A stretch of DNA of 64,000 nt from an uncultured Gallionella sp. GTDB lineage: Bacteria > Pseudomonadota > Gammaproteobacteria > Burkholderiales > Gallionellaceae. Below the pieces are notes generated by a model, which had not been told where the DNA came from, ran no database searches, and worked only from the letters and a program-made list of their open reading frames with translations. Shown in pieces: positions 9,966-31,322 of this stretch. Position 1 is the first letter of the stretch. Each line of letters starts with the position of its first letter. A program made the position numbers and the translations under genes. The DNA is taken from positions 3,176 through 67,175 of the forward strand of contig CAZSPN010000008.1 in assembly GCA_964608835.1 (NCBI GenBank), written 5' to 3'.

Positions 9966-9989
9966 TTAGTAAACGACTTGTATTAGGAC

Positions 9990-13600: not shown

Positions 13601-13616
13601 TAGTCCGAACGGCTCA
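13601..13616. promoter_or_regulatory. PEP-CTERM box copy (TAGTCCGAACGGCTCA)
   Basis: Matches the 16-bp palindrome family. Lies 392 nt upstream of the 13208 start. Weaker related cores are at 13497-13512 (TAGGCTGTTCGGCTTA) and 13543-13550 (CCGAACGG). Confidence 0.45.
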
Positions 13617-13732
13617 TTTTTGATGTAACTATTGACCCCGTAGTGAACTGTCCGTAACTCAAACGCTCCCTCTCTCATTACTCGATAAACAATGGCAATA
13701 GATTTGGCACGGTTTACCCGTGATACAGACAT

Positions 13733-13757
13733 CACCTCTCCCCTTGTGGGAGAGGTG
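13733..13757 (-). terminator. GC-rich hairpin 3' of the pseudopilin-like gene (no U-tract)
   Basis: Perfect 10-bp inverted repeat CACCTCTCCC (13733-13742) / GGGAGAGGTG (13748-13757) with a 5-nt loop. It is not followed by a T-run on the minus strand, so terminator function is uncertain. Confidence 0.35.
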
Positions 13758-13840
13758 TGGGAAGGAGGAATAGACTCCTCGAAAGCTTACAGTTCAAATC
13801 AGCGAATAAATCATGCTGAGCCAATAAGCAATGAAGTTTT

Positions 13841-14653
13841 TTACTGGTACTGCACCGCCAACGGCGATAACATTTTTCCGCCCAGACACGCGGCATATCG
13901 GCTCGCCGCCGAAGCCAGACAAGTAGCACCCACCGCATCGCCGAATTTTTTGGATAACCTGAAACAGATACCCAAGTCATTGCCGTGCATCACGTCGCAC
14001 ACGCGTTTTCTGCGCTCATCGGCAGTGTGTGTTTTGGGCTGCTGAGGTGGCGGTGCGACATATTCCGGTGGAATAATTTCAGCGGGTGGCGGTTTGGGTG
14101 TTGTGTTGCCGCCCTGATTGGCGACAACAGCGGGCAACGAGACTTGGGTGTAAATAAATTTCCAGTCCGAATAATGTTGTTTGTCCGCAAACGAAGCAAA
14201 TTCCTGGTCGAAATTTGCCACTTTGATCGGCTTGGTTTCCGACTTGCTGTACACACCCACGATGCCACTGTTGGCATCTTTTATCAGCCCCCATTCAACG
14301 CTCGCGGTAAAGGGATCAAAAAAGATTTTGCGTAAATGACGCTGAATCGTGGCGGCCCGCCTGTCTTCCACCAAATCGTCTAATTTTTTCGGCAATTGTT
14401 TTGGCTGACCGGTGAGAGGGTTTTCATAGGCATAATAAGAGCTGATGGCTTGCATGAATTGCTTGCCGACAAACAGCAGTTGCTTTTCCTTGTCGCGCTG
14501 CTGAGTCTGCGATGTAACCGTGGCAATCAATGCCAACGAGACTCCCATCAGGGCAACCGCAAACAACACACCGATATAAGTGAATCCGGCGTTGAGACGA
14601 GCGGGGCGGGTCAAACCAAAGCTACTGAACAGCGACACCCAGATTCTCTTCAA
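13841..14653 (-). CDS. Prepilin-type N-terminal-motif protein (pseudopilin-like) with a Pro-rich linker and a 4-Cys C-terminal domain
   Basis: 270 aa. ...RLNAGFTYIGVLFAVALMGVSLALI resembles the prepilin cleavage/methylation motif, but has Gly instead of Glu at +5. PKPPPAEIIPPEYVAPPPQQP linker. C-terminal Cys x4 (VCDV, GICF, ATCL, AACL). Overlaps dsbC-like by 32 nt. Confidence 0.65.
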   Translation of the reverse strand: MKRIWVSLFSSFGLTRPARLNAGFTYIGVLFAVALMGVSLALIATVTSQTQQRDKEKQLLFVGKQFMQAISSYYAYENPLTGQPKQLPKKLDDLVEDRRAATIQRHLRKIFFDPFTASVEWGLIKDANSGIVGVYSKSETKPIKVANFDQEFASFADKQHYSDWKFIYTQVSLPAVVANQGGNTTPKPPPAEIIPPEYVAPPPQQPKTHTADERRKRVCDVMHGNDLGICFRLSKKFGDAVGATCLASAASRYAACLGGKMLSPLAVQYQ

Positions 14654-15338
14654 TTATCTCATGCGGCTGATTGCCAAACAGCAATTTTCCGCTGGTGAAG
14701 ATCACGCCCGGCGTACCATTGATCCAATTGCCGGCGGCAAATTCGGCGAGTTGCTTGATGGGCGTTTCGCAATTTGTGTTGCTATCCTCGGGTTCTTTCT
14801 GGCGCACCAGCATATCTTCCCAAGCCCGTGCTCTGTCCTTTGCACACCATACCAATTGTGCCTTGCGCAACGAGTCGGGGTGAATATCCGCGAGCGGCAG
14901 TAAGAAGGTGTAGATGGTGACATCGGTCACACTTTCCAGTTCCTTTTCTATTCCCTGACAGAACGGGCACTCCGGATCCGAAAACAGCGCGAGTTTGCGC
15001 GCACCGGTTCCCTTGACTCTGACAATCGCTTTATCCAAAGGTAACTTTGCAAAATCGACCACGGTGAGTTTTTCTTTTTCCAACTGGGTCAAATTGATTT
15101 TGCTTTTGATGTTAACCAGATTGCCAAACAAACCCACTTCGCCTTTTTCATCGGTATAAGCGATATTCGCGCCGTTAAACGCCACCTGGTAAAGCCCGGC
15201 GTAAGGCAGTTTGGTAATCACCCCGACTTTAACATCGGGTAAATTCTTGGCGAACGATTCTCTGATTTCCATTTCTCCCGCTTGCGCCAGGCATGAAAAA
15301 CCAATCAGCATCAATCCCATTAAACTTTTGCTAAACAC
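14622..15338 (-). CDS. DsbC/DsbG-family periplasmic thiol:disulfide isomerase
   Basis: 238 aa. Signal peptide MFSKSLMGLMLIGFSCLAQA, N-terminal dimerisation-like region, thioredoxin fold with CPFC active site (FSDPECPFCQ). Confidence 0.85.
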   Translation of the reverse strand: MFSKSLMGLMLIGFSCLAQAGEMEIRESFAKNLPDVKVGVITKLPYAGLYQVAFNGANIAYTDEKGEVGLFGNLVNIKSKINLTQLEKEKLTVVDFAKLPLDKAIVRVKGTGARKLALFSDPECPFCQGIEKELESVTDVTIYTFLLPLADIHPDSLRKAQLVWCAKDRARAWEDMLVRQKEPEDSNTNCETPIKQLAEFAAGNWINGTPGVIFTSGKLLFGNQPHEIIEENLGVAVQ

Positions 15339-15373
15339 TTTTCACTCCTCAATACTGATATGTGGCATTGCCA

Positions 15374-16207
15374 CTATTTGGTTTTCAGAATTCCGAGGTC
15401 GATGGCTCTGGCAACCGCGTGTCCCCGCGTTTTTGCATTCAATTTTTTGAGGATATTCTGCACGTGGTTTTTCACTGTCAGCGGGCTGATAAACAGTTCA
15501 TCGGCAATGGTCTGATTGGTTTTACCCACTTTGATGAGGTTGATAATTTGAATTTCGCGCGCGCCCAATGATGCGGTTTCAGATGTATTAACTTCAATCG
15601 GGACGGGCTTGTGTACAACGATGCGGGCGAGTGCCGAGTCAAGAATAGGCAGCAACTCTTCCAGTATGTGGAGCAATCTCGCACTCAACACCTCTGTTAC
15701 ACCGGAGAAGTAAAAATAACTCTTCATCTGACCGTCCGCACTGCATAACCCATGCGCCACGATATTTTCCAATTCATAACGCTTTAGCATGTTTACCCAG
15801 GTGTGATCGAAATCGCCTATCGTTGTTTTCTGGCTGATGATGCAGCCTTTGCCAGATTTTCTGGCCCGATCTATCATTTTCAACAGCAGACTGTCTTCAG
15901 ACTGGCACAACTCTGAAAACTCCTCCTTTTTGAATTGTGGGTTGCTCGAAAAGGTGTAGAACCGTGGATACGGAACTATCTCCGACCAGATGGCGCACAT
16001 CAGTACTTCATGCGGCATCAAATACTGCAACTCGCACTGCGCCCAATTAAAAAACTGTTGCTCATTCGACACGCGTAGCGAACCGTTGACGATGGCAACC
16101 AGCCGATCCTGATCTTCCCCCTCCAGGGTTTTTCGCGCTTCAATAAGATGGTTCATATTATCTGCCCCCATCTTTTGATATGCTGAGGTTGTGTCCGTCA
16201 AAATCAT
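15374..16207 (-). CDS. epsA: LuxR-family transcriptional regulator, EpsA type (XrtB/PEP-CTERM-associated)
   Basis: 277 aa. C-terminal GerE/LuxR HTH (LGAREIQIINLIKVGKTNQTIADELFISPLTVKNHVQNILKKLNAKTRGHAVARAI) with a ~200-aa N-terminal domain. Located inside an XrtB-type locus. Confidence 0.8.
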   Translation of the reverse strand: MILTDTTSAYQKMGADNMNHLIEARKTLEGEDQDRLVAIVNGSLRVSNEQQFFNWAQCELQYLMPHEVLMCAIWSEIVPYPRFYTFSSNPQFKKEEFSELCQSEDSLLLKMIDRARKSGKGCIISQKTTIGDFDHTWVNMLKRYELENIVAHGLCSADGQMKSYFYFSGVTEVLSARLLHILEELLPILDSALARIVVHKPVPIEVNTSETASLGAREIQIINLIKVGKTNQTIADELFISPLTVKNHVQNILKKLNAKTRGHAVARAIDLGILKTK

Positions 16208-16210
16208 TTA

Positions 16211-16972
16211 TCAATTCACCACGCCCAATTTTGCAAGTTGCGCGACGATCATGGGTCTGTCCAAAACTTCCGCCCAATGGAATGGTGTGTATCCATTTAC
16301 CGGGCTGTAAGTATTCGCTCCCGCTTGAATCAGGCGTTGCGCCACATCGTCGTGACCTTCATAGATTGCCCAATAGAGCGGCGTCGTACCCTGACCTTCG
16401 ATCAGATTTACATCCGCACCGTGAGCCAGCAAAGCGTCCACATATTCCAAACGACCCAACTGCGCGGCAAGCACTAACGGTGGCTCACCGCGCTCGCTTC
16501 TCATGTTCACATCCGCACCCGCTTGAAGTAGCAGCTCAACATTTTCATCACGCTGAAAACGTATCGCACTCGCAAGTGGCGTGCCGCCAGAGTCATCCAG
16601 TACATCCAGCCGTGCACCCGCTTTGATGAGCATCTTGAGAACTTCAGTATCACGACGCATTGCTGCTGCACCAATAACGCTGTAACCCAGACTACCTTTG
16701 ACGTTAACGTCCGAACCCAATTCAATCAATCGACGCACCATATCCCGATTGGAGTAATACGAGGCTACCAAAATGGCACTATTCCCCCCCTTGTCCAGCG
16801 CGTTGGGATTGGCTCCAAACTCAAGCATCATCTTGAATATTCTCAGGTCACCCCGTGCCGACGCTTCAATCAAATTGAGATCATCATCTGTTGTCGCCGA
16901 GGCAGATTTAATACCGATACAAAGACTAAAAATCAGTACGCCAAAGGCAGCAAATAATTGCTTAACGTTCAT
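16211..16972 (-). CDS. Secreted ankyrin-repeat protein
   Basis: 253 aa. Signal peptide MNVKQLFAAFGVLIFSLCIGIKSASA. About 6 ankyrin repeats (GGNSAILVASYYSNRDMVRRLIELGSDVN, GGTPLASAIRFQRDENVELLLQAGADVN, GTTPLYWAIYEGHDDVAQRLIQAGAN). Its stop lies 3 nt before the epsA start. Confidence 0.88.
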   Translation of the reverse strand: MNVKQLFAAFGVLIFSLCIGIKSASATTDDDLNLIEASARGDLRIFKMMLEFGANPNALDKGGNSAILVASYYSNRDMVRRLIELGSDVNVKGSLGYSVIGAAAMRRDTEVLKMLIKAGARLDVLDDSGGTPLASAIRFQRDENVELLLQAGADVNMRSERGEPPLVLAAQLGRLEYVDALLAHGADVNLIEGQGTTPLYWAIYEGHDDVAQRLIQAGANTYSPVNGYTPFHWAEVLDRPMIVAQLAKLGVVN

Positions 16973-17129
16973 AAGTTATGCGGCAGGATTATCTTAATAA
17001 CCAAATCATTTTAGCCATCATTCATGTCAATTAGATTAAGACTTTGTGACATTCGCTTTACTTAATTTAACCGGCGTAATTCAATTTGGTTGAGTATCGT
17101 CATTGCGATAATTGGGTGTACAAACAATA

Positions 17130-17155
17130 ACGGCGAAGCTCGAAAACTTCGCCGT
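17130..17155 (-). terminator. Hairpin terminator 3' of the PEP-CTERM gene 17199..17780
   Basis: ACGGCGAAG (17130-17138) / CTTCGCCGT (17147-17155) with an 8-nt loop. T-rich on both sides (gtattattt on +, ttattgtttg on -). Confidence 0.5.
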
Positions 17156-17198
17156 ATTATTTACATTGCATAGGCTCGGAAAAACTATCGACCTAGTA

Positions 17199-17780
17199 TT
17201 AAGACGCAGAAAATCCCGCATGATGCTTACGACGGTTTGCGATAAACCCAATCAGTCCAAAACCCGCCAGAATCATCGCCCACTCACTCGCTTCCGGAAC
17301 AGCCACGATATTCAATATGCCTGTGTAGCTGCCTCCCGAGGTGCCGGAAATATTTCCAGAAACATGCAAAATATAGTTACCCGCCGTCAGCATAATTGGA
17401 TTGATGATTGCGGACGATGCCGTCCAACCCGCACCATTAAAACTCAACAAATTACTGGTCGCCATCAAAGTCCCGCTCGGTATGCCGCTCACGACATTTG
17501 TTCCGCCATACAAGCTGGTCTGAAGGCTATTGATGCCGAAAATACTTCCCAGGCTAATTGTGGAGGTAATTGAGTCCGTTGAAGCAGCGGGAATACTGAA
17601 CAAGTAATTGTCATTGAACTGCCCAACCGAGTTAGCAAATGTATTGCCAATAGTCAGCTGTGACGGAGGCAACTGATTTCCAAGATTTGTGTCCGCCGCC
17701 CTAACTTGTCCCGAAACGGCAAAAAAAGCCAATATGCCTAGAGCTGCATGTCGCATTAAAGTTGATCGTTCTTTTTTCAT
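17199..17780 (-). CDS. PEP-CTERM sorting-domain protein (paralogue of the N-terminal half of 29707..31086)
   Basis: 193 aa. Signal peptide ...LGILAFFAVSGQVRA. C-terminus AVPEASEWAMILAGFGLIGFIANRRKHHAGFSAS. Confidence 0.9.
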   Translation of the reverse strand: MKKERSTLMRHAALGILAFFAVSGQVRAADTNLGNQLPPSQLTIGNTFANSVGQFNDNYLFSIPAASTDSITSTISLGSIFGINSLQTSLYGGTNVVSGIPSGTLMATSNLLSFNGAGWTASSAIINPIMLTAGNYILHVSGNISGTSGGSYTGILNIVAVPEASEWAMILAGFGLIGFIANRRKHHAGFSAS

Positions 17781-17906
17781 AGATTTTTCCAGTATGTGTG
17801 TGAGCTATAAAATCGGCCAAATAAAAATGACTCTTATTGGTGCTCCCATAACTGTCACTCTACAAATTTAATGTTAAGAATAATGCAGTGTGTAGCGATT
17901 GCAATG

Positions 17907-17922
17907 TAGTCCGAAAGGACTA
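17907..17922. promoter_or_regulatory. PEP-CTERM box (TAGTCCGAAAGGACTA, perfect 6+6 palindrome)
   Basis: 126 nt separate it from the 17780 start. On the coding-sense strand, CATTAT follows after 21 nt, then ...TGTAGAGTGAC. Confidence 0.55.
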
Positions 17923-18015
17923 TTTTGCGAGAATTCAGCAGAAATGCGTGTTGCTAAAAAGCTAGGATTGTTTGTCCGATAATACTCGCCACAAACGGAA
18001 TTATTCGGCACTTCC

Positions 18016-19239
18016 CTACTGAATTTTTCTAATGGTATGGTTGTTGGTGTCCGCCACATACATGCTCATGCCATCAGTGGTGATGCTTGAAGGGGAACTA
18101 AATTTTGCGACTGGTCCACCACCCTCCGTTGAACCAGCGACACCTGTGCCAGCGAGGAGCGATACTTCGCTGCTGGCAAGCACGATTTTTCGGATGGTAT
18201 GGTTGCCACCTTCTGCCACATACACGTTAGTCCCGTCAGTGGTGATGCCGTAAGGTAGATTGAACCTCGCATTTGTACCGACTGCATTAGTCGAACCGCT
18301 TACAAGTGGCTCTCCTGCGAGCGGGGAGACGGTGCGGTTGGCGATTTCAATTTTTCGGATAGTGTGGTTACCACTATCGGCCACGTACAGATAAGTGCCG
18401 TCAGTCGTGATTCCCTCAGGAAATCTAAACATGGCCGCCGCACCCACACCATTGGATGATCCGCTGGAAAGTGCCACACCGGCAAGCGTGGAAACTGCGC
18501 CTGTGGCAATCACAATTTTTCTAATGGTATGGTTGTTGGTATCTGCTACGTATAAATTAACCCCATCCGTGGTGATGCCACGAGGTGCTTGAAATCTGGC
18601 ATCTGTACCTAGGTCAGCATCTTTACCTATGGTGTTGTCGGCTAGTGATCCAAAATCCCCTGCCTTTCCTGCAAGCGTGGAGACTGCGTTGGGTGCAGCA
18701 ATCGCAATTTTGCGTATGGTGTGGTTATCCGTATCCGCCACATATAAGTTGATGCCGTCCGTCGTGATACCGCGAATACCTCTGAACCTCGCCTCTTTAC
18801 CTATCGCGTTGTCGGTTAAACCAAATTCCCCGGCCTTGCCCGCGAGTGTGAAAACTACGCCCGTGGCAATCATAATCTTGCGTATCGTATAGTTAAAGCT
18901 ATCCGCAACGTAAAGGTTGACCCCGTCTGTGGTAACACCCAAAGGATTTTGAAACAAAGCAAGTGCCGGCGGACCATCATCCGAGCCGGGGAAACCCGAT
19001 GAGCCACCAAATGTGGAGACAATGGCTGTGAGATTAAGCGCAACCCCTTGTTTTGCACCGCCCATGAGTACGCTGCCCGCCGATTCCCCTCCACCTCCGC
19101 CACACCCGGCAAGTGCTAAAATGCCGCAAAATATTATGCTCATCCAAGCAAAATTAATCGTCTTATTGCTCGTAACGGCTTGGTGCATGACATTGCGTCC
19201 TTTAATTAAAATGGCCAAATAATTCGACAAACTGGACAC
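18016..19239 (-). CDS. NHL-repeat six-bladed beta-propeller lipoprotein
   Basis: 407 aa. Lipobox ILALAGCGGGGG. Six copies of G(I/V)TTDGxNLYVADxxNHTIRKI spaced ~45-55 aa apart. Starts 19 nt downstream of PEP-CTERM gene 19258..19809. The true start may be the internal Met (MHQAVTS...). Confidence 0.85.
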   Translation of the reverse strand: MSSLSNYLAILIKGRNVMHQAVTSNKTINFAWMSIIFCGILALAGCGGGGGESAGSVLMGGAKQGVALNLTAIVSTFGGSSGFPGSDDGPPALALFQNPLGVTTDGVNLYVADSFNYTIRKIMIATGVVFTLAGKAGEFGLTDNAIGKEARFRGIRGITTDGINLYVADTDNHTIRKIAIAAPNAVSTLAGKAGDFGSLADNTIGKDADLGTDARFQAPRGITTDGVNLYVADTNNHTIRKIVIATGAVSTLAGVALSSGSSNGVGAAAMFRFPEGITTDGTYLYVADSGNHTIRKIEIANRTVSPLAGEPLVSGSTNAVGTNARFNLPYGITTDGTNVYVAEGGNHTIRKIVLASSEVSLLAGTGVAGSTEGGGPVAKFSSPSSITTDGMSMYVADTNNHTIRKIQ

Positions 19240-19257
19240 TCCAAACTTTGTGGTAGT

Positions 19258-19809
19258 TCAAGCCGCGCAAGATTTTTCAGTGCGTTTTCGGCGATGGGCA
19301 ACCCATCCAATCAAACTGAAGCCGGTCAACATCAACACCCACTCTTCGGATTCGGGAATCGCGGCAACGTAATAACCATCATCCCACCCGCCCAATCCAT
19401 CCCGAATCTCATCCTCACGCTTATCCTGATGCGGAATCCACTGGTGGTGATCATCTTCAGTTTTCATCTTGCTGAAAATTGTCAAGGGAACCAAATCATT
19501 TTCTCCAACGAACTCACCAAAAAAATCAACTCCCCCATTAACATGTAGAAATTGGTAATTGTTGGTACTAAACACGCTTATCAAAGTTTTATTCGATGCG
19601 TTTTCGTAACCCCATGAATCCGGAATGGTGTATTTTTTATTTTCAATCAACTGGGTCAGCAGATTTTCATAATCATCATTTCCCAGAACGATGAATTTGC
19701 AATTCCCGCAAGACTGCGAAGATGCCATCGCCTGTCCAGACAAGGCTGACAGCATCATCAAGACGTGCAAGATTAAAACGGGTAATTTTAATTTCATAAC
19801 TTTCTCCAA
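19258..19809 (-). CDS. PEP-CTERM sorting-domain protein (acidic/His/Trp-rich pre-signal region)
   Basis: 183 aa. Signal peptide ...LMMLSALSGQAMA. C-terminus AAIPESEEWVLMLTGFSLIGWVAHRRKRTEKSCAA, a variant IPES motif. Confidence 0.85.
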   Translation of the reverse strand: MEKVMKLKLPVLILHVLMMLSALSGQAMASSQSCGNCKFIVLGNDDYENLLTQLIENKKYTIPDSWGYENASNKTLISVFSTNNYQFLHVNGGVDFFGEFVGENDLVPLTIFSKMKTEDDHHQWIPHQDKREDEIRDGLGGWDDGYYVAAIPESEEWVLMLTGFSLIGWVAHRRKRTEKSCAA

Positions 19810-19895
19810 CGAACCGTTGCCCTATCGACAGGCGAGACGACACCACAATACCGGCTGTGCATGACAAATATGTTTATGCAAATGCCAAACAAAGG

Positions 19896-19911
19896 TAGTC
19901 CGAACGGATTA
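19896..19911. promoter_or_regulatory. PEP-CTERM box (TAGTCCGAACGGATTA)
   Basis: 86 nt separate it from the 19809 start. CATAAA follows after 17 nt on the coding-sense strand. Confidence 0.55.
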
Positions 19912-20275: not shown

Positions 20276-20914
20276 TCAGGCTGCGAAATTGCGTTTTATA
20301 TTGCGTTTACGACGGTTGGCAGCAAAGCCAATTACACCAAAACCTGCCAGCATTAACGCCCATTCACTCGCTTCAGGAACGGGAGAAACATGATTGTCAT
20401 CATCCCAGTCAGCAAAGTCATCGTCCAGCTCTTCATCATATTCATGATGATCCCAGCGGTTATCAGTCCGACCATCTTTATCCTTAAATACTGTCCTCGG
20501 TTCTATGAACGAACCGCCCCACTGTTGCTGGAGCTTCCGAGCGTCATGTGAATAATATTCATTTTTATTACGCAGAGTTATCAGGTGGTTGCTGCTTTCA
20601 AAAATGCTCTCCAAGTGATTGGGTGAAATGTCTCCGTAGTGAGGTCTCTCTGGAATTTTGTATTTAATTTCGTCACTGAATGAAGGAACCAAATCCCCAT
20701 AGTAGTTCCTCTCTGGAATTCTGTATTCACAATCACCCATTGACCAGCTCTTCTGGGCAAAAGAACAGCTGCCAAAAATTGCATTACCCGAAACGGATTG
20801 AATGCGCACATCACCATCGTGTAATGTCGCTGCTAAGCTTTCCCCCGCTAGTGCAATTAAAGCTGACAAGCCGAGAAACACTCTCAGCATAGAAATTGAT
20901 AATTTTGTATTCAT
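20276..20914 (-). CDS. PEP-CTERM sorting-domain protein (acidic/His/Trp-rich pre-signal region)
   Basis: 212 aa. Signal peptide ...LSALIALAGESLA. C-terminus SPVPEASEWALMLAGFGVIGFAANRRKRNIKRNFAA. Confidence 0.88.
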   Translation of the reverse strand: MNTKLSISMLRVFLGLSALIALAGESLAATLHDGDVRIQSVSGNAIFGSCSFAQKSWSMGDCEYRIPERNYYGDLVPSFSDEIKYKIPERPHYGDISPNHLESIFESSNHLITLRNKNEYYSHDARKLQQQWGGSFIEPRTVFKDKDGRTDNRWDHHEYDEELDDDFADWDDDNHVSPVPEASEWALMLAGFGVIGFAANRRKRNIKRNFAA

Positions 20915-21014
20915 GATTTCCCCCAGCTAAATAATCAAGCTGAAAACAACATAACAAGAGGACATCAAGATACTAGTAAAGTGTGACGATTTTATTATGA
21001 AAATATCGTAGCAA

Positions 21015-21030
21015 TAGTCCGAACAGACTA
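21015..21030. promoter_or_regulatory. PEP-CTERM box (TAGTCCGAACAGACTA)
   Basis: 100 nt separate it from the 20914 start. CATAAT follows after 15 nt on the coding-sense strand. Confidence 0.55.
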
Positions 21031-21074
21031 GATTGAGTGAAGTTTAACGAAGTGAACTTATTTCATAACGCAGG

Positions 21075-21935
21075 TTATTCGTGATGATGACTCAACAACG
21101 GATCAACCAGCAAACCATACGAAGATTGTGATGCGAGTAAGGAATGATGAGGTATCTGATGCTCCGCTTGTTGAGTGATGTCCACATTTTGCAAAGCGTT
21201 GGCAATGGCATCTTGTGCGGCCCTTGCCAATACGCGGCGGTTTTCTGTGGCAGCCGACAGTGCTGGCGTGAAAACCACCAACGCATTAAGTTGTGAACAG
21301 CGCAGTAATTGCCAGATAGACTGTATCAGAGTCATATCACCAATGAATGATGCCTCACTGCTGTGTTCACCCGCTTCATTTTGGTAATACAGTGCGACAG
21401 GGCATATCTTCATTCTTGCATCAATAGCGGGCTGAATAAGTGCGGAATGGAAATGCCCCACCTGCTTACCATCGGTTGTTGTGCCTTCAGGGAAAAGCCC
21501 GACACTCACACCCTGACCCAGTAACAAACTCAACCGCAAATTGATCGTCGCAGCATTCTGGCGCAACGCCCGCTCTATAAAGACAGTCCCCGTACGTTGG
21601 CTCAACCAACCGATAATAGGCCAATCACGCACTTCCGATTTGGCTATAAAGCGCGACGGGTGAATCGCATTCAACACAAAAATATCCAACCATGAAACAT
21701 GATTGGCAACAACCAAATAGCCGCCCTCGCCTCTTATGGGCTGTCGCCCTTCAATTTGAACGCCAATATTGAAGATGGTGAGCAGTTGCCTGCTCCAATT
21801 CTTTAGGATGCCGAGTTGTCTCTTAGAATTCAAATGAGGATAAACAATTGCCAGCAGAATTCCATTAACCAGATGTACGGCAAGGCGTACTCCGCGAAAT
21901 ACGCTCAGCAATGGGTGCGCCGGAAAGTTATTCAT
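21075..21935 (-). CDS. Lysophospholipid (1-acyl-sn-glycerol-3-phosphate-type) acyltransferase, PlsC family
   Basis: 286 aa. HX4D motif in VVANHVSWLDIFVL, plus FPEGTTTDG. Its start overlaps the upstream GGDEF gene stop by 4 nt. Confidence 0.8.
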   Translation of the reverse strand: MNNFPAHPLLSVFRGVRLAVHLVNGILLAIVYPHLNSKRQLGILKNWSRQLLTIFNIGVQIEGRQPIRGEGGYLVVANHVSWLDIFVLNAIHPSRFIAKSEVRDWPIIGWLSQRTGTVFIERALRQNAATINLRLSLLLGQGVSVGLFPEGTTTDGKQVGHFHSALIQPAIDARMKICPVALYYQNEAGEHSSEASFIGDMTLIQSIWQLLRCSQLNALVVFTPALSAATENRRVLARAAQDAIANALQNVDITQQAEHQIPHHSLLASQSSYGLLVDPLLSHHHE

Positions 21936-23017
21936 ATTGAATCCGCACCTCCTTCTTGAGGGAGCTGATTCAACCCCGGTAATAATGTGCGGCGGCGTTC
22001 TATAAACAGGCTATTCCCCGGTTTTTTCTTGGCCATGTCCTTGGCAATTGAAACTGCTTCTGCAACTTCGTAGTGAGAACCAAATAACTTCGGGGTAATC
22101 CACACCGCACCGATAGAAAGGGTGGGGAGGGGATAATGGACAAGACGACCTTGCCGATCCTCCATCATGTATCCACCGATGGCACGGTGTTCTTTGTCAA
22201 ATAAGGTTGCCGATGTTTTCGCGAATATCGTGAGAGCCTGGCTGCAACGCTGCTCCCAATCTTCGCTTTGCAATACAAAAATAAATTCATCTCCCACTAT
22301 ATGCCCGACAAAATCTTGCTTTGGGTCGCTCACGCCATTCAGCAATTCACCGACAAACTTAATCAGCTGATCCCCTTTGCTATACCCATACGCATCGTTA
22401 AACGATTTGAAATGATCCAAATCGGCATTACATACCGCAAATGAACTTCCAGCCTGGAGAAGATTCTCTATGCATTCATTGATAGATGATTTATCAGACA
22501 AGCACATCAAAGGATCGGCATCATTTTTATTTCCAGCCAACGTGCTGGTTATTTCACGTAACAAATCCTGTCCTGTAGCCAGCCCAATATATTGACCCTG
22601 ATCGATGATAATGAAGCCATCTGTAAAATGGCTGGGATTAGATGCACTCAAAATGTTGGTGAGTTCTTCGATAGCCGTGGATTTTTCTACTACCAATGGG
22701 TGTGCATCCATCGCATCGGTACAATGTTGCTTACCCAATAATTCACGATGGATAGATTGAGAAAATTTATCCACTAACTCATAACGGTGAATCAATCCCA
22801 GTGGACTGCCTTCTTTAGTCACGGGGATAGAACGCAAATTTTGATTGGCGGAAAATAAGGCAACGATTTCTTCAATCTCTGTTTCTGGCTTAACAGGTTC
22901 AACGTAACGCAAGATTTTTTCAACGGTCACATTGCCTGCCGTAGTGTGCGATTGCTGAACAAGTGACTTCATCGTAAACACTCTATGAATAACATAGGGT
23001 GTCAGAATACGACTCAA
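21932..23017 (-). CDS. CBS-pair + GGDEF-domain protein with a degenerate signature (VGDEF)
   Basis: 361 aa; the track start is TTG, and ATG 22972 (MKSLVQQ...) is plausible. Tandem CBS-like region. GGDEF-domain context ADLDHFKSFNDAYGYSKGD...GHIVGDEFIFVL. The signature codons at 22283-22297 read V-G-D-E-F. Confidence 0.75.
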   Translation of the reverse strand: MSRILTPYVIHRVFTMKSLVQQSHTTAGNVTVEKILRYVEPVKPETEIEEIVALFSANQNLRSIPVTKEGSPLGLIHRYELVDKFSQSIHRELLGKQHCTDAMDAHPLVVEKSTAIEELTNILSASNPSHFTDGFIIIDQGQYIGLATGQDLLREITSTLAGNKNDADPLMCLSDKSSINECIENLLQAGSSFAVCNADLDHFKSFNDAYGYSKGDQLIKFVGELLNGVSDPKQDFVGHIVGDEFIFVLQSEDWEQRCSQALTIFAKTSATLFDKEHRAIGGYMMEDRQGRLVHYPLPTLSIGAVWITPKLFGSHYEVAEAVSIAKDMAKKKPGNSLFIERRRTLLPGLNQLPQEGGADSI

Positions 23018-24964: not shown

Positions 24965-25080
24965 CTCGTAATCCATTCTCACAAAACCGTAACATTTCTC
25001 GTGGATGATGCTAATTTTGCTGAGGCAGGGTTCTCGCTTGCACCCTGAAATGCGCGTTCAGCAATGTTCAGTGGTAATTT

Positions 25081-26493
25081 ATGACGACTCAATTCAAAAC
25101 ACCCACTTCATTCCGCCGCTCCACTTCTCTTACGATAGAACGGTCAGGGCTATTAAATCTGGTGGAAGCTTTTCTTGATCCGCTGACTATCATTTTTTCT
25201 TTGTTTGCCTTGGTGCTGTTCAAAGAATCTGAATTAACGCCACCGTACTTGATTCTTTCGTTGTTGATATTTGCCATCAGCTTTCCAGGCGAAGCTCAAC
25301 TCAACATGCCGATGTTAAGCAAAATCCGGCACATTTATTTTGACTGGGCAATCAAAGTAGGCTTGCTCGCTTTCTTTGGCTATGCCAGCCGTTACCTGGA
25401 ATTTTTTGATTTTGATATTTTATTGACATGGTTGTGGCTGGCACCTACCAGTCAGGTAGCCACCCACATTCTGGCGCGTAAAGTCGCACCCGCTATTTTG
25501 AAAATTCAGGGGGAGACTCGCTATGCCATCATTGCCGGTATAACCGAGCAAAGCGTTGAACTCGCCTTACGTTTCAAGGATGACCCTTATTCAAACACTC
25601 ACATCTTGGGGTTTTTTGATGATAGAACCGAAGAACGGGTAGAGCACGATCTTTTATGCAGGAAGCTGGGAACACTGAATGACCTCCCCAGATTCGTCAA
25701 TGAAAATAAAGTGCCACTAATCTACCTGTCACTCCCCATGAGTACCCAGCCGCGTATTCTGTCGTTGTTGGACAAGCTGCGCGATACCACCGCCTCGATT
25801 TATTTTGTACCCGATATTTTTGTCACCGACTTGATTCAAGGTCGGCTAAGCACCGCTGCCGGTTTGCCCGTTGTTGCGGTATGCGAATCTCCATTCACCG
25901 GGTTTAATGGGGTCATTAAACGCATCAGTGATATTGTCTTATCCACCTTAATTCTATGCCTCATTATGCCCATCATGCTGGTAATTGCGATAGGCGTAAA
26001 GTTTAGCTCGCCTGGGCCTGTCATATTCAAGCAAAGACGCTATGGTCTGGATGGAAGAGATATTGTCGTTTATAAGTTCCGTTCCATGACCGTGTGCGAC
26101 GATGGCGATAAAATCCAGCAAGCGCAAAAATCCGACCGTCGTATCACACCATTGGGTGCTTTCCTGCGCAAAACCTCTTTGGACGAACTGCCCCAGTTCA
26201 TCAATGTTATGCAGGGCAGAATGAGTATCGTCGGCCCGCGTCCACACGCCGTTTCCCACAACGAAGAATACCGTAAGCTCATCAAAGGCTACATGGTGAG
26301 ACACAAAGTTAAACCAGGCATCACGGGTTGGGCACAAGTAAACGGTTACCGTGGTGAAACAGAAGTTTTGGATAAAATGGCTAAGCGTATCGATCACGAT
26401 CTGGAATACCTCAGAAACTGGTCGTTACGGCTCGATCTTTACATCATCATTAAAACTGCCCTAGTTGTGCTCAAAGACCGCCATGCCTATTAG
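25081..26493 (+). CDS. epsB: Polyprenyl-phosphate hexose-1-phosphate (priming) transferase, EpsB/WcaJ type
   Basis: 470 aa. N-terminal TM helices and a C-terminal bacterial sugar-transferase domain (PGPVIFKQRRYGLDGRDIVVYKFRSM, DELPQFINVMQGRMSIVGPRP, KPGITGWAQVNG). Confidence 0.85.
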   Translation: MTTQFKTPTSFRRSTSLTIERSGLLNLVEAFLDPLTIIFSLFALVLFKESELTPPYLILSLLIFAISFPGEAQLNMPMLSKIRHIYFDWAIKVGLLAFFGYASRYLEFFDFDILLTWLWLAPTSQVATHILARKVAPAILKIQGETRYAIIAGITEQSVELALRFKDDPYSNTHILGFFDDRTEERVEHDLLCRKLGTLNDLPRFVNENKVPLIYLSLPMSTQPRILSLLDKLRDTTASIYFVPDIFVTDLIQGRLSTAAGLPVVAVCESPFTGFNGVIKRISDIVLSTLILCLIMPIMLVIAIGVKFSSPGPVIFKQRRYGLDGRDIVVYKFRSMTVCDDGDKIQQAQKSDRRITPLGAFLRKTSLDELPQFINVMQGRMSIVGPRPHAVSHNEEYRKLIKGYMVRHKVKPGITGWAQVNGYRGETEVLDKMAKRIDHDLEYLRNWSLRLDLYIIIKTALVVLKDRHAY

Positions 26494-26552
26494 GCATGTG
26501 ACCGAGTCATAAACTGATCTCGCAGTTTCGTATCACAGAAATTTTTACCCGC

Positions 26553-27242
26553 ATGAAAACACTGCGCACTTATCTTGATGAACACCCTGCATTACCCAGG
26601 GTGCTTCCTTTTGTTCTGTACATCATTTTTCTCGCGTTTGAAGATGTCATCAAGAGTGTCTCCTCACTTGGCCAATTTGATACGCGCCTGATTTATCCAT
26701 GCAAAGTAGCATGTGTTGCGCTGTTGCTGGTTTACTTCTGGCACTTCTACGCAGAGCTTGCAAAGTTCAAATTACGATTGCATGAGGTATCGTGGAGTCT
26801 GGCTGTAGGTGTGGGCGTTTTTCTACTCTGGATTAACTTGGATTACTCATGGATGAGTTTTGGACAATCCACTGGTTACGATCCGCGCAACCTGGCGGGT
26901 GAAATTGATTGGTCATTAGCACTGTCTCGCTTGCTGGGAGCCGCTGTCGTCGTCCCGATTATGGAAGAGCTATTTTGGCGTTCATTTTTATTGCGTTGGC
27001 TGGCACATTCAAAATTTCTCAATGTATCCCCTGCACAAGTTGGGCTACGAGCATTATTGATAAGCTCTGTGATGTTCGGCATGGAACATGCCTTATGGCT
27101 GGCAGGCATTATTGCTGGATTCGCCTATAGCTGGCTGTATATGAAAAGCAAAAATCTGTGGAGCTCTGTCGTCGCGCACGCCACCACCAATGGCTTGCTT
27201 GGACTTTGGGTGCTGTACACAGGGCAGTGGCATTTCTGGTAA
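26553..27242 (+). CDS. CPBP (CAAX) family intramembrane glutamic endopeptidase, PEP-CTERM-locus associated
   Basis: 229 aa, polytopic. Motifs EExxxR (PIMEELFWRSF), FxxxH (MFGMEHALW) and HxxxN (VVAHATTNGL). Confidence 0.85.
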   Translation: MKTLRTYLDEHPALPRVLPFVLYIIFLAFEDVIKSVSSLGQFDTRLIYPCKVACVALLLVYFWHFYAELAKFKLRLHEVSWSLAVGVGVFLLWINLDYSWMSFGQSTGYDPRNLAGEIDWSLALSRLLGAAVVVPIMEELFWRSFLLRWLAHSKFLNVSPAQVGLRALLISSVMFGMEHALWLAGIIAGFAYSWLYMKSKNLWSSVVAHATTNGLLGLWVLYTGQWHFW

Positions 27243-27398
27243 ATTTTTACTGCACCATGTTGCCGAGCATTCAACCCATTGAATAGTTCGATGGCTTTTA
27301 GGTGCAAAGAATTCATCTCTTTGAAACAAATATTTCAATTTCTTGCAACACTCCTTGATTAAATTTACATCTGGTAATTTTGAAATTAGGAGAAGACA

Positions 27399-27557
27399 AT
27401 GCACGAACAACAGTGTGATGATTTTTTTATCCCGCCTTTTCTTTTGAAGCAACCGCTTCAATTCGAAAACGACAAAGATGAGGCAGCATTGGGAGACTTT
27501 CTAAAAGGTATCCAAGGCTGGGCCGAGTGTTTCTGGGTGGACGAATGCGTTGAATAA
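27399..27557 (+). CDS. Hypothetical small acidic Cys-containing protein (52 aa)
   Basis: Below the ORF-track size cutoff. AGGAGA lies 6 nt before ATG 27399. MHEQQCDDFFIPPFLLKQPLQFENDKDEAALGDFLKGIQGWAECFWVDECVE, then TAA at 27555-27557. No recognisable family. Confidence 0.3.
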   Translation: MHEQQCDDFFIPPFLLKQPLQFENDKDEAALGDFLKGIQGWAECFWVDECVE

Positions 27558-27623
27558 AATTAGCCTGAATGGGACTGATTGGCGATGTTACGGTTATTCG
27601 GGTAAATCAATCGGGATGTAAGC

Positions 27624-28511
27624 TTAGGATTTATTATTCAATAGGGCCTGCAGGTGAATCCCAAAATCTTCGCCAACTTCTTTGTGACGCAATCCAAAAG
27701 CCACGGTCGCCTGTAGATAACCCAGCTTTGAACCACAGTCGTAGCGTACTCCGTCATAGCGGTAAGCCAGAATTTGTTCTTCGCTCATCAGTGATGCAAT
27801 GCCATCGGTCAGCTGTATCTCCCCGCTCGCGCCAGGTTGTACACGCTCCAGATGCTTGAAAATACTGGGTGTAAGAATATATCGCCCCACCACCGCCAAA
27901 GTTGATGGCGCATCTTCCGGTTTGGGTTTTTCCACAATGGAGGAAATTTGTTCGATGCGCTCACTGACAGGTTTTGATTTCACAATACCGTAACGACTGG
28001 TGTCTTGGGGGGGCACATCCTCCACACCCAGCACGGAACAACGATAGTAATCGTAAGTTTCCACCATCTGCTTCACCACCGATGGCGTGCCATCGAGCAA
28101 ATCGTCCGCCAACAACACCGCGAACGGCTCATCCTCAATCACCGAACGTGCGCACAAAATAGCGTGACCCAACCCCAGTGCTTCAGGTTGACGAATATAA
28201 ATGCAGTTAACATGCTTGGGCAAAATCTCCTGCACTACTTTCAGCACCTCTAATTTACCTTTTAAAGCCAGTTCGTTTTCCAACTCATAAGCTTTATCAA
28301 AGTGGTCTTCGATGGCGCGCTTGCTGCGACCCGTCACAAAAATCAAATCGGTGATACCCGCCTCAATAGCCTCTTCCACCGCATACTGAATCAGCGGCTT
28401 ATCCACAACGGGCATCATCTCTTTGGGGCTGGCTTTGGTAGCAGGCAGAAAGCGGGTACCCATGCCCGCGACTGGAAACACTGCCTTACGAATTTTTTTC
28501 ATTACTGTCAC
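27624..28511 (-). CDS. galU: UTP--glucose-1-phosphate uridylyltransferase
   Basis: 295 aa. [33 protein letters not shown] and [11 protein letters not shown] motifs. Confidence 0.92.
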
Positions 28512-28526
28512 CGTGTCCCAATAAAA

Positions 28527-29549
28527 TTATTCTGCTCCAAAAACTGCGTACCCATTTGGATTAATGGATTGCCAACGCCATGCATCGCGGCACATCGTTT
28601 CAAGATCGCGCTTTGCGCGCCAACCCATTAACTCGTAAGCCAGCGCAGGGTCAGCGTAACAAGAAGCAATATCACCGGGTCGCCGATGTGTCATGCGGTA
28701 AGGAATGGCGCGCGTACACACCTTCTCAAAAGCTCGCACAATATCCAGCACACTATAACCAACACCCGTTCCGAGATTTACCGTCAGCTTGGTGTTATCC
28801 CTATCTAGCGCATCCAAAGCCGCCAGATGCCCAACCGCCAAATCCACAACGTGGATGTAGTCCCTTACACCCGTTCCATCATGGGTTGGGTAGTCATTGC
28901 CAAACACGGGTAACTCCTTGAGTCTGCCCACTGCAACCTGGCTGACAAAAGGCATGAGATTGCTTGGAATTCCATGGGGGTCTTCACCTATCAGTCCACT
29001 TTCGTGTGCACCCACCGGATTGAAATATCGCAACAGTGCAATGCGCCACGATGAATCTGATTCCGCCAAGTCGCGCAGAATTTCCTCGATCATCAATTTT
29101 GATCGTCCGTACGGATTCGTCGCAGACAACGGAAAGTGCTCCTGAATCGGTACGGTATGGGGACCGCCATAGACGGTTGCGGATGAACTAAAGACCAGAC
29201 GCTTTACCCCAAACTCCGCCATTGTCTCAAACAAGGCAATACTGCCGACGACATTGTTGTGATAATAATGCAGTGGCTTTTCCACCGATTCGCCAACTGC
29301 CTTCAGACCCGCGAAGTGAATGACCGCCTCGATAGGATAAGTCGAGAATAATTGTCTTAGTGTGTCGCGGTCATTCACATCCGCAATGACCATTGGAATA
29401 GACTTTCCGGTAATTTTCTCAACACGGTGGAGTGCTTCTATGCGGCTATTGCTGAGATTATCAATCACAACAACTTCATGCCCAGCCGCAAGCAACTCCA
29501 CGCAAGTATGCGAGCCGATATATCCGACACCACCCGTTACCAATATCAT
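28527..29549 (-). CDS. galE: UDP-glucose 4-epimerase
   Basis: 340 aa. [14 protein letters not shown] Rossmann motif, YGRSK (YxxxK), and colinear GalE-like sequence throughout. Confidence 0.9.
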
Positions 29550-29706
29550 TTACCATATCCCGTTTGCATCTCAATCACTCCACCACTGCTATGAGATATT
29601 GAGAGTAACAGTCGAATGTGACAGGAATTTTAATCCTCCCCACTCAAGCCGATATCAGGATGAAAGTAGGTTATGCTGGTGCAAACTAAAACACCAGCTT
29701 ATAAAT

Positions 29707-31086
29707 TTATCGGGCAGCCACTTCACCAACATTCGAAGCATTACCCCAAAAATTCCCCAGCAATTGCATAGCTGCGCCAATAACAAAAATGGTATTAGTC
29801 ACAAAATACCGTTTCCACAAACGGCGGGGTTCGGAACATAAGCGGTGCAACCACTCCAAACCATTGCGCTGCATCCACAAGGGTGCACGTTGCACCGTAC
29901 CTGCGTGATAATCAAAAGCGGCTCCCACTCCAATCATCACAGCATGGATACGGTTACGATGTGCTGCCATCCACTTTTCCTGCTTGGGACAGCCCAAACC
30001 TACAAACACAACACCCGCACCTGAAGCGTTAATGGATGTAACAGTTGCTTCGTCTTCAGCTTCGCTCAATACCCGAAATGGTGGCGAATATATTCCACCA
30101 ATTTGTAGGTTTGGAAATGCTGCACGCAATTTCGTGGAGAGCAACTGCAATGTTTCGTCAGTGCTACCATAGAAATATACAATCTCACCACCGCGCTCTG
30201 CCTGAGCGCAGTATTTCCACATCAAGTCTGGACCATTGATACGCTCCTGGCCATGGAATCCCTGTTCGCGCAACATCCACGCAACCGGCATCCCGTCCGG
30301 GGTGGCCATATCTGCTTGATTAACCACCCTCCTGAATTCCCCGTCCTGACTAGCCGTTACAACAGAATGCACATTGCAAATGCAAACATATCGTGACTCG
30401 CGTGCCTGAGACCAAATGGTGATACGTGCAAGTGTTTCGCTCCACGAAAACGCATTGATAAAAGTATCCATTACTTTTGCGCCATCTCGCTTTATCCTAT
30501 ATTCCTCCACCGCATATCCCCTGCGGCGAGCGGCAATGAAACCCATCATGCCCAAGCCCAAAACCAGCATTGCCCATTCTGCAATTTCAGGTACAGGAGA
30601 AATCACAGGAGAAATATTTAATGTTCCCGCATAACTCCCTCCAAATGTGCCAACCACATTCCCCGTAACCGATAAAATATAGTCTCCAGAATTCAAAGTT
30701 GTCGGGTTGATCACCGCAACTGTGCTATTGAAACCGTTTCCCGTATCAGAAAATATGCTACTTGTGGCAAGTAGCATTCCTCCGGGCATACCTGAATTGA
30801 TTGATGTCCCACTGTACAACCTGGTTTCCAAGCTGTTGATGCCAAATACACTTCCCAAGCGGATAGTCGAAGTAATGGAGTTAGCTGATGACGCGGGAAT
30901 ACTGAATAAATAATTATCGTAGAACTGCCCGGAGGGTGAATTAAAAACATTACCAACACTTAGAGTGGACGGTGCTGATTGGGTACCCAAGTTAACAGAA
31001 ACCGCCATTGCCGATTCAGAAACCGCAAGCAAGACAAACGATCCAAGTAATACCCGTTGTATTAAAACTAATAATCTAGGACGCAT
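29707..31086 (-). CDS. Fusion ORF: PEP-CTERM cargo protein (aa 1-~195) + WecB/TagA/CpsF (GT26) glycosyltransferase (aa 206-459)
   Basis: N-terminus has a signal peptide plus a domain colinear with 17199..17780. Sorting signal SPVPEIAEWAMLVLGLGMMGFIAARRR (nt 30594-30520). A 16-aa linker follows, then Met206 (ATG 30471-30469). GT26 motifs: ATPDGMPVAWMLR, VVFVGLGCPKQEKWM, GVGAAFDYHAGTVQRAP, GLEWLHRLCSEPRRLWKRY. Confidence 0.8.
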   Translation of the reverse strand: MRPRLLVLIQRVLLGSFVLLAVSESAMAVSVNLGTQSAPSTLSVGNVFNSPSGQFYDNYLFSIPASSANSITSTIRLGSVFGINSLETRLYSGTSINSGMPGGMLLATSSIFSDTGNGFNSTVAVINPTTLNSGDYILSVTGNVVGTFGGSYAGTLNISPVISPVPEIAEWAMLVLGLGMMGFIAARRRGYAVEEYRIKRDGAKVMDTFINAFSWSETLARITIWSQARESRYVCICNVHSVVTASQDGEFRRVVNQADMATPDGMPVAWMLREQGFHGQERINGPDLMWKYCAQAERGGEIVYFYGSTDETLQLLSTKLRAAFPNLQIGGIYSPPFRVLSEAEDEATVTSINASGAGVVFVGLGCPKQEKWMAAHRNRIHAVMIGVGAAFDYHAGTVQRAPLWMQRNGLEWLHRLCSEPRRLWKRYFVTNTIFVIGAAMQLLGNFWGNASNVGEVAAR

Positions 31087-31190
31087 AGTTTTCTCCAGTT
31101 AATCGACGTGCCAAAAAATTGACTCAAGCAATTTGTGGTCACTCTACTGACTGAATATGAAAATATTTGCAGTGCTAGTAACTGTTGGAT

Positions 31191-31206
31191 TAGTCCGAAC
31201 AGCCTA
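31191..31206. promoter_or_regulatory. PEP-CTERM box (TAGTCCGAACAGCCTA), proximal copy
   Basis: 104 nt separate it from the 31086 start. Followed on the sense strand after 31 nt by CATATTCAGTCAGTAGAGTGAC. Confidence 0.55.
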
Positions 31207-31306
31207 TTTCACGCAACCAAATTATTAATTTTGGTTTTATCAATTTCAGCGTTCAGTACTGTACTAACTGAATGTGAATTTTTTGTGTGGGGAAATGTGA
31301 AACAGG

Positions 31307-31322
31307 TAGTCCGAACGGACTA
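31307..31322. promoter_or_regulatory. PEP-CTERM box (TAGTCCGAACGGACTA, perfect palindrome), distal copy
   Basis: 220 nt separate it from the 31086 start. Followed on the sense strand after 30 nt by CACATTCAGTTAGTACAGTAC, i.e. a duplicated promoter module. Confidence 0.5.

Follow-up and report, generated by a model that had tools for sequence, protein, structure and literature searches.

A 16-bp inverted repeat upstream of PEP-CTERM genes in a Gallionella exopolysaccharide locus, probable operator of the LuxR/GerE-family regulator EpsA

The stretch of DNA analysed here, 64,000 nucleotides of an uncultured Gallionella sp. (contig CAZSPN010000008.1; hereafter the window, position 1 being its first letter), is occupied by a complete XrtB-type exopolysaccharide (eps) locus. 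Its minus strand encodes EpsL, EpsD, EpsE, EpsF, EpsG, exosortase B and a B-type EpsI, together with sugar-nucleotide genes, a flippase and many glycosyltransferases, and the locus also holds WcaJ, a TIGR03790-family protein, a PEP-CTERM-associated CAAX-like protease, a GGDEF protein (21932-23017), GalE and GalU. Our subject is a 16-bp inverted repeat, which we call the box, that recurs in the intergenic regions 5' of the PEP-CTERM genes of this locus and that is probably the operator through which the regulator EpsA, encoded in the same locus, controls them.

Five intact PEP-CTERM genes, all on the minus strand, stand behind boxes (Table 1). One of them (19258-19797), followed after 19 nt by an NHL-repeat gene, had been assigned a TTG start at 19809; the ATG at 19797, which has a GGAG ribosome-binding site, is the more likely start. 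Another (29707-31086) combines a signal peptide, an FxDxF-type domain and a sorting tail ending in ARRR with a WecB/TagA/CpsF glycosyltransferase, and no stop codon separates the two parts. In the related locus L201 wecG stands as a separate gene, and the open reading frame (ORF) in the window may be genuinely fused, may have lost a stop codon or may reflect an error of sequencing. A third gene (12309-13208) carries a cyclic di-GMP (c-di-GMP) riboswitch in its leader, a feature kept in the Gallionellaceae relative L095, so that this cargo gene seems subject to control by the box as well as by c-di-GMP. A six-frame search for sorting signals gave one further PEP-CTERM-like tail (PVPEPDTYILLLMGFICLIGFQRIMSRR, sub-threshold) in a 75-aa ORF (60405-60632, plus strand) that lies directly 3' of a glycosyltransferase gene, has neither signal peptide nor box, and is probably a gene remnant.

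The box has the form 7-2-7, TAGTCCG-WW-CGGACTA, in which two 7-bp arms flank a 2-bp centre of either AA or TT, and in its half-site matrix positions 1-6 are strongly conserved. The pattern TAGTCCGAANNGNNTA has 5 matches in the 64 kb against 0.00 in shuffled sequence. The half-site TAGTCCGAA occurs as 6 exact copies, all on the plus strand, at 13601, 17907, 19896, 21015, 31191 and 31307, and a search for the consensus TAGTCCGAACGGACTA allowing up to 3 mismatches returns the same six places only, where 0.23 would be expected. We also scored all 64,000 window positions with a symmetrised half-site weight matrix built from independent box instances. The six original copies rank at the top, the seventh-best position (13497-13512, score 14.0) is a degenerate box, and the position ranked after these seven (score 10.8) falls within coding sequence. 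All seven boxes are intergenic and 5' of PEP-CTERM genes, and the scan of the 64 kb places no copies in coding sequence or in other intergenic regions.

The original prediction had reported the six exact copies with correct coordinates, sequences and plus-strand reading, and several of its further statements survive in narrower form. The gaps it gave between box and start codon (86, 100, 104, 126, 220 and 392 nt) are arithmetically sound, although 86 rests on the TTG start at 19809 and becomes 98 nt from the ATG. The repeat is inverted as described but is not a strict palindrome, given the AA or TT centre between the arms. It precedes every intact PEP-CTERM gene and not the 75-aa ORF; that there is no copy elsewhere in the window holds at up to 3 mismatches, whereas the weight matrix adds the seventh box. 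Invariance of the gene-proximal half describes the six copies (0 mismatches against 8 in the distal half) but neither the seventh copy nor other genomes, and we rejected it as a general rule. Finally, the statement that no box precedes the biosynthetic or export operons needs qualifying, because the fusion of a PEP-CTERM protein to WecB/TagA/CpsF behind two boxes means that the box does front a biosynthetic function.

We had also considered the orientation of the AA/TT centre as a strand signal, since the six copies agree in it, and dropped the idea because box 13497 has the opposite orientation and other genomes show both. Boxes are frequently paired, in two spacing classes of about 101-125 bp and about 20-24 bp, as in the window (13497/13601 and 31191/31307) and in loci L074, L011, L122, L167 and L088; such pairing may point to cooperative binding or to tandem promoters.

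Table 1. Boxes, candidate promoter elements, target genes and associated features in the window
Feature	Position	Strand	Details
Box, consensus copy TAGTCCGAACGGACTA	31307..31322		distal of two before the PEP-CTERM::WecG gene; weight-matrix score 26.3
Box TAGTCCGAACAGCCTA	31191..31206		proximal; 104 nt to ATG at 31086; 116 bp from distal box
Box TAGTCCGAACAGACTA	21015..21030		100 nt to ATG at 20914
Box TAGTCCGAACGGATTA	19896..19911		98 nt to ATG at 19797
Box TAGTCCGAAAGGACTA	17907..17922		126 nt to ATG at 17780
Box TAGTCCGAACGGCTCA	13601..13616		distal box of riboswitch-controlled PEP-CTERM gene
Seventh box, degenerate	13497..13512		plus strand TAGGCTGTTCGGCTTA, coding strand TAAGCCGAACAGCCTA; proximal, 104 bp from box 13601
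Candidate -10 TACAGT	31258..31263	-	44 nt after box 31307
Candidate -10 TAGAGT	31141..31146	-	45 nt after box 31191
Candidate -10 TATCTT	20967..20972	-	43 nt after box 21015
Candidate -10 TATTGT	19845..19850	-	46 nt after box 19896
Candidate -10 TAGAGT	17857..17862	-	45 nt after box 17907
Candidate -10 TATTTT	13552..13557	-	44 nt after box 13601
Candidate -10 TATCTT	13447..13452	-	45 nt after box 13497
Second conserved block	13460-13469, 13564-13573, 17870-17879, 19859-19868, 20978-20987, 31154-31163	-	
Target: PEP-CTERM protein, 299 aa	12309..13208	-	PF07589, TIGR02595, PEPxxWA-CTERM
Target: FxDxF-family PEP-CTERM protein, 193 aa	17199..17780	-	NF038126, 95.6 bits
Target unit: PEP-CTERM gene, then NHL-repeat gene	18016..19797	-	PEP-CTERM gene 19258-19797; 19 nt on, NHL-repeat gene 18016-19239
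Target: PEP-CTERM protein, 212 aa	20276..20914	-	
Target: PEP-CTERM (aa 21-189) fused in frame to WecB/TagA/CpsF glycosyltransferase (aa 254-430)	29707..31086	-	
c-di-GMP-I-GGC riboswitch	13330..13412	-	leader of gene 12309-13208; RF03167, 59.9 bits, gathering score 59
Terminator-like hairpin, 11 pairs	17130..17155	-	directly 3' of gene 17199-17780
epsA	15374..16207	-	TIGR03020, 196.5 bits, cutoff 170; GerE helix-turn-helix aa 213-266

A consensus sigma-70 scan found no good promoter after any box, as is expected of activator-dependent promoters, and its total lay below the shuffle mean in the main region. Because that scan yielded none, candidate -10 elements were derived from a box-anchored comparison, in which 33 box instances from outside the window were oriented toward the gene and scored with a -10 weight matrix by offset. 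A sharp peak, confined to the gene side, appears at offset 24: the mean score there is -3.1, compared with about -7.5 for other offsets and with -8.1 for the mirror side. A second cluster lies at offsets 43-46. TTG directly follows the box in 9 of the 33 instances (2 of 33 on the mirror side), and in many genera the order is box, TTGnnn, 17 bp, TAnnnT. A box abutting a TTGnnn -35 element, with its candidate -10 at offset 24, would have its centre near -43.5.

The clade of the window shows the second position. There TAnnnT starts 43-46 nt after the box in 19 of 20 box regions (orthologues among them are not independent), a four-offset window having a background rate of 7.6%. This hexamer is constant at positions 1, 2 and 6 and variable at positions 3-5 (TAGAGT, TATTGT, TATCTT, TAATCT, TAGCAT, TAACGT), which is the signature of a candidate -10 hexamer, and the orthologues of the element at 13447-13452 read TAGCAT, TAATCT, TAATCT and TAATGT at the same offset. 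A -10 at this distance would put the box centre near -64, and since -64 and -43.5 are 21 bp or two helical turns apart, the box would present the same face of the DNA in both arrangements. The proposal that the box centre lies over the -35 region probably does not hold for the window clade, in which the best -10 candidate puts it near -64; in other genera the box abuts the -35 element. For the riboswitch gene the predicted transcript would start about 28 nt before the aptamer.

A second block, of TTGTCACATT, TTGTAATGCT or TTTAATATTC type, is conserved 28-37 nt after the box and is kept in relatives. It lies only 11 bp upstream of the candidate -10, and the TTGTCA within it (offset 28-33) was rejected as the -35 element of TAnnnT, for which the spacer would be 11 bp. 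The block might serve a different start as an extended -10, or be bound by a further factor.

The box was sought far beyond the window by an exact scan for TAGTCCGAACNGNCTA over one genome per species (596 Gb), which gave at least 119 loci. These are a sample and not a census, and because arithmetic predicts about 4,400 chance matches in 596 Gb, the sample mixes chance and signal; the counts in this paragraph refer to the matches listed. Among 66 exact matches in proteobacterial records, most of them from Betaproteobacteria, 30 adjoin an ORF with an exosortase-type sorting tail, and 4 more adjoin a tail detected by hidden Markov model (34 of 66). In Actinomycetota and other phyla the matches lie mostly in coding sequence, and 1 of 58 is beside a sorting-tail ORF. 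Boxes beside sorting-tail ORFs occur in Rhodoferax, Curvibacter, Methylophilus, Methylotenera, Sulfuritalea, Duganella, Massilia, Roseateles, Aquabacterium and Nitrosospira as well as in Gallionellaceae, and the box-bearing genera span GC contents from 37 to 72%, the box preceding unrelated gene families. Other boxes adjoin VPLPA-CTERM variants, the ank-epsA genes (L095, L108) or an EpsA paralogue (L059), and 9 loci have an EpsA homologue in the same 8-kb locus as the match.

Further boxes in this sample point to other functions. In Duganella and Pseudoduganella (Oxalobacteraceae; L079 5015, L111 7327) the box stands 16-110 nt 5' of a gene whose product, an ExeM/NucH extracellular endonuclease, has about 1,000 aa; the gene adjoins a TIGR03790 homologue, and the regulon may include this extracellular-DNA nuclease. 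Boxes are also found 5' of genes for TolQ/ExbB-like proteins with a long N-terminal extension (L061 800, L038 963) and for small proteins near eps genes that consist only of a cyclic-nucleotide-binding domain (L059 3889, L086 748).

The reciprocal comparison starts from the protein. In 80 metagenomic loci (583 kb) selected by EpsA alone, 22 boxes with up to 2 mismatches are present against 0.05 in shuffles, an enrichment of more than 400-fold. Allowing up to 3 mismatches, 12 of the 65 loci that have enough upstream sequence carry a box in the 450 nt 5' of epsA, and 8 of 71 carry one in the 450 nt 3' of it, usually there in front of a PEP-CTERM gene; the shuffle rate predicts such proximity in about 0.2 loci. 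Finding a box 5' of the regulator's own gene across many independent lineages is what normally ties a motif to an autoregulated transcription factor. Co-distribution is therefore seen from both sides: the GerE regulator EpsA is encoded together with boxes, and boxes are enriched in loci chosen for EpsA.

Among the relatives of the window, the closest loci share 66-75% DNA identity with it. Both boxes of the riboswitch gene are kept in L095, L200, L201/L202, L203 and L205, 101-104 bp apart, while the sequence between and around them has diverged. Box 13601 is identical in L095, L200, L201, L203 and L205, and the degenerate box 13497 is conserved there as well. Relatives also carry a box 5' of the orthologue of gene 17199-17780 or of the ank-epsA string, and L201 has one 218 nt before an operon of glmS-like, epimerase and wecG genes. 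The proposed regulon is wider than cargo, extending to the glycosyltransferase fusion in the window and elsewhere to epsA, the glmS-wecG operon, the extracellular nuclease and others. In L204 (7159-7194) the box forms the centre of a longer perfect palindrome of 36 bp, ACAAGCAATA-TAGTCCGAACGGACTA-TATTGCTTGT, located 101 nt before a small PEP-CTERM gene.

The placement of epsA at 15374-16207 by the original prediction is upheld by a family match above the TIGR03020 cutoff (Table 1). Pfam recognises only the GerE domain in the protein, with no match to the Pfam autoinducer-binding model, and the C-terminus weakly matches the CsgD model. An AlphaFold model of EpsA (mean predicted local distance difference test score 87) aligns over its full length best with QscR, RhlR, CviR, SdiA, TraR and LasR (E-values 6e-11 to 1e-7), and its N-terminal domain reaches target TM-scores (template modelling scores) of 0.62-0.65 with the ligand-binding domains of CviR and CepR2. 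The predicted N-terminal domain has the fold of quorum-sensing LuxR ligand-binding domains. The helix-turn-helix core GK.N..I...L..S..TVKNH, recognition helix (TVKNH) included, does not vary across homologues with identities of just 23-62%, in parallel with the near-invariant box. The closest named homologues come from Gallionella and Sulfuricella metagenome-assembled genomes, and the best match, 95% identical, is on a 2.7-kb contig. A family scan of the 51 largest ORFs of the window, which make up most of the locus, recognised no DNA-binding protein but EpsA; several of these ORFs had no family match, and a few longer than 150 aa lay outside the scan.

In the window, epsA belongs to a minus-strand gene string (13841-16972) that comprises an ankyrin-repeat protein, EpsA, a DsbC-like protein and a prepilin-like protein with the N-terminus GFTYIGVLFAVALMG. 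The string is kept in L095, L108, L200-L203 and L205, and this conservation suggests that the accompanying proteins work with EpsA. Secretion genes also lie beside the locus. Downstream of the riboswitch-controlled cargo gene (7755-12215, minus strand) are genes for a conserved protein of 479 aa that matches no family and for a transporter of ShlB/TpsB type, followed in relatives by a TPS-domain protein of about 3,400 aa, indicating a two-partner secretion module beside the eps locus; the type II secretion genes gspG and gspF (60769-62426, plus strand) also flank it.

Taken together, these observations suggest that the box is a double-stranded DNA operator of a dimeric helix-turn-helix regulator, most probably EpsA, that activates the promoters of cargo genes. 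We hold with high confidence that the box is a protein operator of the eps/PEP-CTERM regulon; that EpsA in particular is the protein that binds it is likely, with less assurance. One EpsA dimer would occupy each 7-2-7 site and, once bound, would activate a weak sigma-70 promoter immediately downstream, acting in the window clade from a box centre near -64 and in many other genera from near -43.5 on the same helix face. Its targets in the window would be the five genes for PEP-CTERM proteins, the putative cargo of exosortase B; among the five are the glycosyltransferase fusion, the gene with the NHL-repeat gene behind it and the gene that the c-di-GMP riboswitch additionally gates. In other genomes the box also precedes epsA, where it would mediate autoregulation, as well as biosynthetic genes and an extracellular nuclease. 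The sites, their enrichment and conservation, their linkage to epsA and the fixed distance to a -10-like hexamer are matters of observation; from them we infer the identity of the binder and the direction of its effect, and the transcription start positions are predictions. The proposal that the box is an EpsA operator defining a cargo regulon is thus strengthened as regards EpsA, by the enrichment in EpsA loci, the boxes 5' of epsA and the invariant recognition helix, and has to be given up as regards cargo only.

Several findings weigh against this interpretation. In 53 of the 65 EpsA loci no box (up to 3 mismatches) is present in the 450 nt 5' of epsA. In the window none stands directly 5' of ank-epsA, and the terminator-like hairpin after gene 17199-17780 lies between ank-epsA and box 17907; it argues against simple read-through from that box, and we cannot claim that box 17907 drives epsA here. 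About half of the proteobacterial exact matches listed have no recognised target. The orthologous promoters in the set of 20 are not independent observations, and the block at offset 28-37 allows an alternative start, which would put the box centre at -51.5.

A rival explanation is that the box is a genuine PEP-CTERM/eps operator bound by another transcription factor encoded elsewhere, with EpsA one of the regulated genes. The case for EpsA is entirely associative, most EpsA loci have no recognisable box 5' of epsA, some boxes lie away from any visible epsA (for example before the TolQ/ExbB-like and ExeM/NucH nuclease genes), and the second conserved block hints at another factor near the box. 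However, the family scan of the 51 largest ORFs recognised no other DNA-binding protein, GerE-type dimers bind precisely such 7-2-7 dyads, the boxes of EpsA-selected loci cluster within 450 nt of epsA, and the invariance of the recognition helix is matched by that of the box. We therefore consider a different binder unlikely.

It is less probable still that EpsA binds the box as a repressor or anti-activator, the box marking genes that stay off until a signal is received. QscR, to which the EpsA model is structurally most similar, was named a repressor, and a site that adjoins or overlaps promoter elements can block RNA polymerase. By contrast, the box is always upstream of the -35 and -10 elements and never over the -10 or the start, its two preferred positions are two helical turns apart as with activators, the absence of a good sigma-70 promoter after the boxes is typical of activator dependence, and NarL activates from the same geometry.

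The original prediction had named two other alternatives, and neither fares well. If the repeat acted as RNA, forming a hairpin with a 6-bp stem and a 4-nt loop in the 5' leaders of PEP-CTERM mRNAs, its arms should covary. Perfect copies do fold well, the regions around 17907 and 31307 at -12.5 and -10.2 kcal/mol, and the proximal box of a pair would be transcribed if the distal promoter fires. Yet the arms of 44 boxes show 67 changes confined to one side, 2 that are compensatory and 3 double changes that are non-complementary, a pattern that reflects the half-site degeneracy of a protein-binding site and not structured RNA. The box hairpin is the minimum-energy fold in 3 of the 7 window copies, the other 4 having z-scores above -2; a -10-like hexamer is conserved downstream of the box at fixed distance; both centre orientations occur; and Rfam gives no match over the box, its sole match in the window being the c-di-GMP riboswitch. 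The hairpin is accordingly very improbable. Least probable of all is a non-regulatory dispersed element (of the repetitive extragenic palindromic or miniature inverted-repeat transposable kind) or by-product of duplicated promoters, for although PEP-CTERM genes are paralogues and the six original copies share one centre orientation, the copies align over 16 bp only and not in their flanks, orthologous sites persist while flanks diverge, the window copies all precede one gene class with none in coding or other intergenic sequence, and the same 16 bp precede unrelated gene families in many genera across a GC range of 37 to 72%.

If EpsA is the activator that binds the box, a bolder model can be drawn from the sequence and the predicted fold, although we regard it as doubtful in its entirety. 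EpsA might be an orphan LuxR-type receptor whose quorum-sensing-like domain senses a signal other than an acyl-homoserine lactone, and which drives a self-reinforcing matrix cargo regulon through the box at -43.5 or -64, together with a second factor or an unusual promoter element (the TTGTCACATT-type block); the c-di-GMP riboswitch would add an AND gate of transcription plus leader on at least one target. Such a regulon might, again tentatively, unite the substrates of exosortase B, the genes for the matrix nuclease, for sugar nucleotides and for glycosyltransferases, and epsA.

Systems of the PEP-CTERM/exosortase kind occur widely among environmental bacteria and biofilm formers, and what is known of their cargo and control comes almost entirely from genome context. 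A defined 16-bp box would allow the XrtB cargo and matrix regulon to be listed in any betaproteobacterial genome, would open both the control and the membership of the exosortase B regulon to direct testing, and would offer a handle on the signal sensed by the LuxR-receptor-like domain of EpsA. It would also explain how cargo genes scattered over the locus are co-expressed with polysaccharide synthesis. All this bears on how flocs and biofilms form in Gallionella, Sulfuricella, Methylophilaceae, Comamonadaceae and Oxalobacteraceae, and on the way Curvibacter colonises its host.

In the literature we found no paper on an EpsA binding site, and the box sequence appeared in none save as part of an unrelated primer; a Curvibacter preprint notes of EpsA only its LuxR domain. 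A published control element of PEP-CTERM genes is the PrsR site, a 17-nt motif (motif 1) ending in TTTACA and followed about 63 nt later by a -24(GG)/-12(GC) sigma-54 promoter (motif 2), upstream of proteobacterial PEP-CTERM genes; it was described for XrtA-type systems, where further upstream motifs were said to remain undiscovered (Haft et al. 2006, PMC1569441). Its setting resembles that of the box, both being cis-elements conserved in the long regions upstream of PEP-CTERM genes that stand as single-gene units, and it served to tie a regulator to the cargo genes by phylogenetic profile. The box differs in being unrelated in sequence, with no TTTACA, and the system of the window is of XrtB/EpsA type with sigma-70-like promoters. 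A PrsR/sigma-54 architecture was considered and rejected: a scan for TGGCAC-N5-TTGCW with up to 2 mismatches gave 43 matches in the window against 51.7 expected, none of them between a box and its start codon, and no PrsK/PrsR/PrsT-type genes were present among the 51 largest window ORFs scanned.

In its architecture the box comes close to the sites of NarL, a GerE-type dimer that recognises 7-2-7 inverted repeats and activates from centres at -44.5 (abutting the -35 element), -67.5 and -77.5 (PMC7419079). The sites of NarL and NarP in Escherichia coli likewise consist of two inverted 7-bp elements with a 2-bp spacer bound by one GerE dimer, their half-sites also begin with TA, and some promoters have paired sites. 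The systems differ in half-site (TACYYMT against the TAGTCCG of the box), in the absence of a receiver domain from EpsA, whose predicted N-terminal domain resembles a LuxR ligand-binding domain instead, and in their targets, which are respiration genes for NarL and matrix and cargo genes for the box, whose pairs here stand 101-125 bp apart.

Quorum-sensing LuxR receptors bind as dimers to 18-20-bp dyads near -42.5, typically just upstream of or overlapping the -35 element, and often regulate their own genes. The full-length alignment of the EpsA model with receptors such as QscR and TraR and the box centre near -43.5 in many genera fit this pattern, whereas the lux, tra and las boxes are longer than the 16-bp box (18-20 bp) and unrelated to it in sequence; no luxI-type gene was seen in the window. 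CsgD and VpsT are GerE regulators whose regulons are tied to c-di-GMP and which, as EpsA would, switch on components of the extracellular matrix; the eps locus of the window likewise holds a c-di-GMP riboswitch and a GGDEF gene. They differ from EpsA in having receiver-like N-domains and other binding sites. In XrtB-type systems, by comparison, EpsA has been a named regulator with no known site, and we propose the box as that site, most likely the operator of this LuxR/GerE-family regulator.

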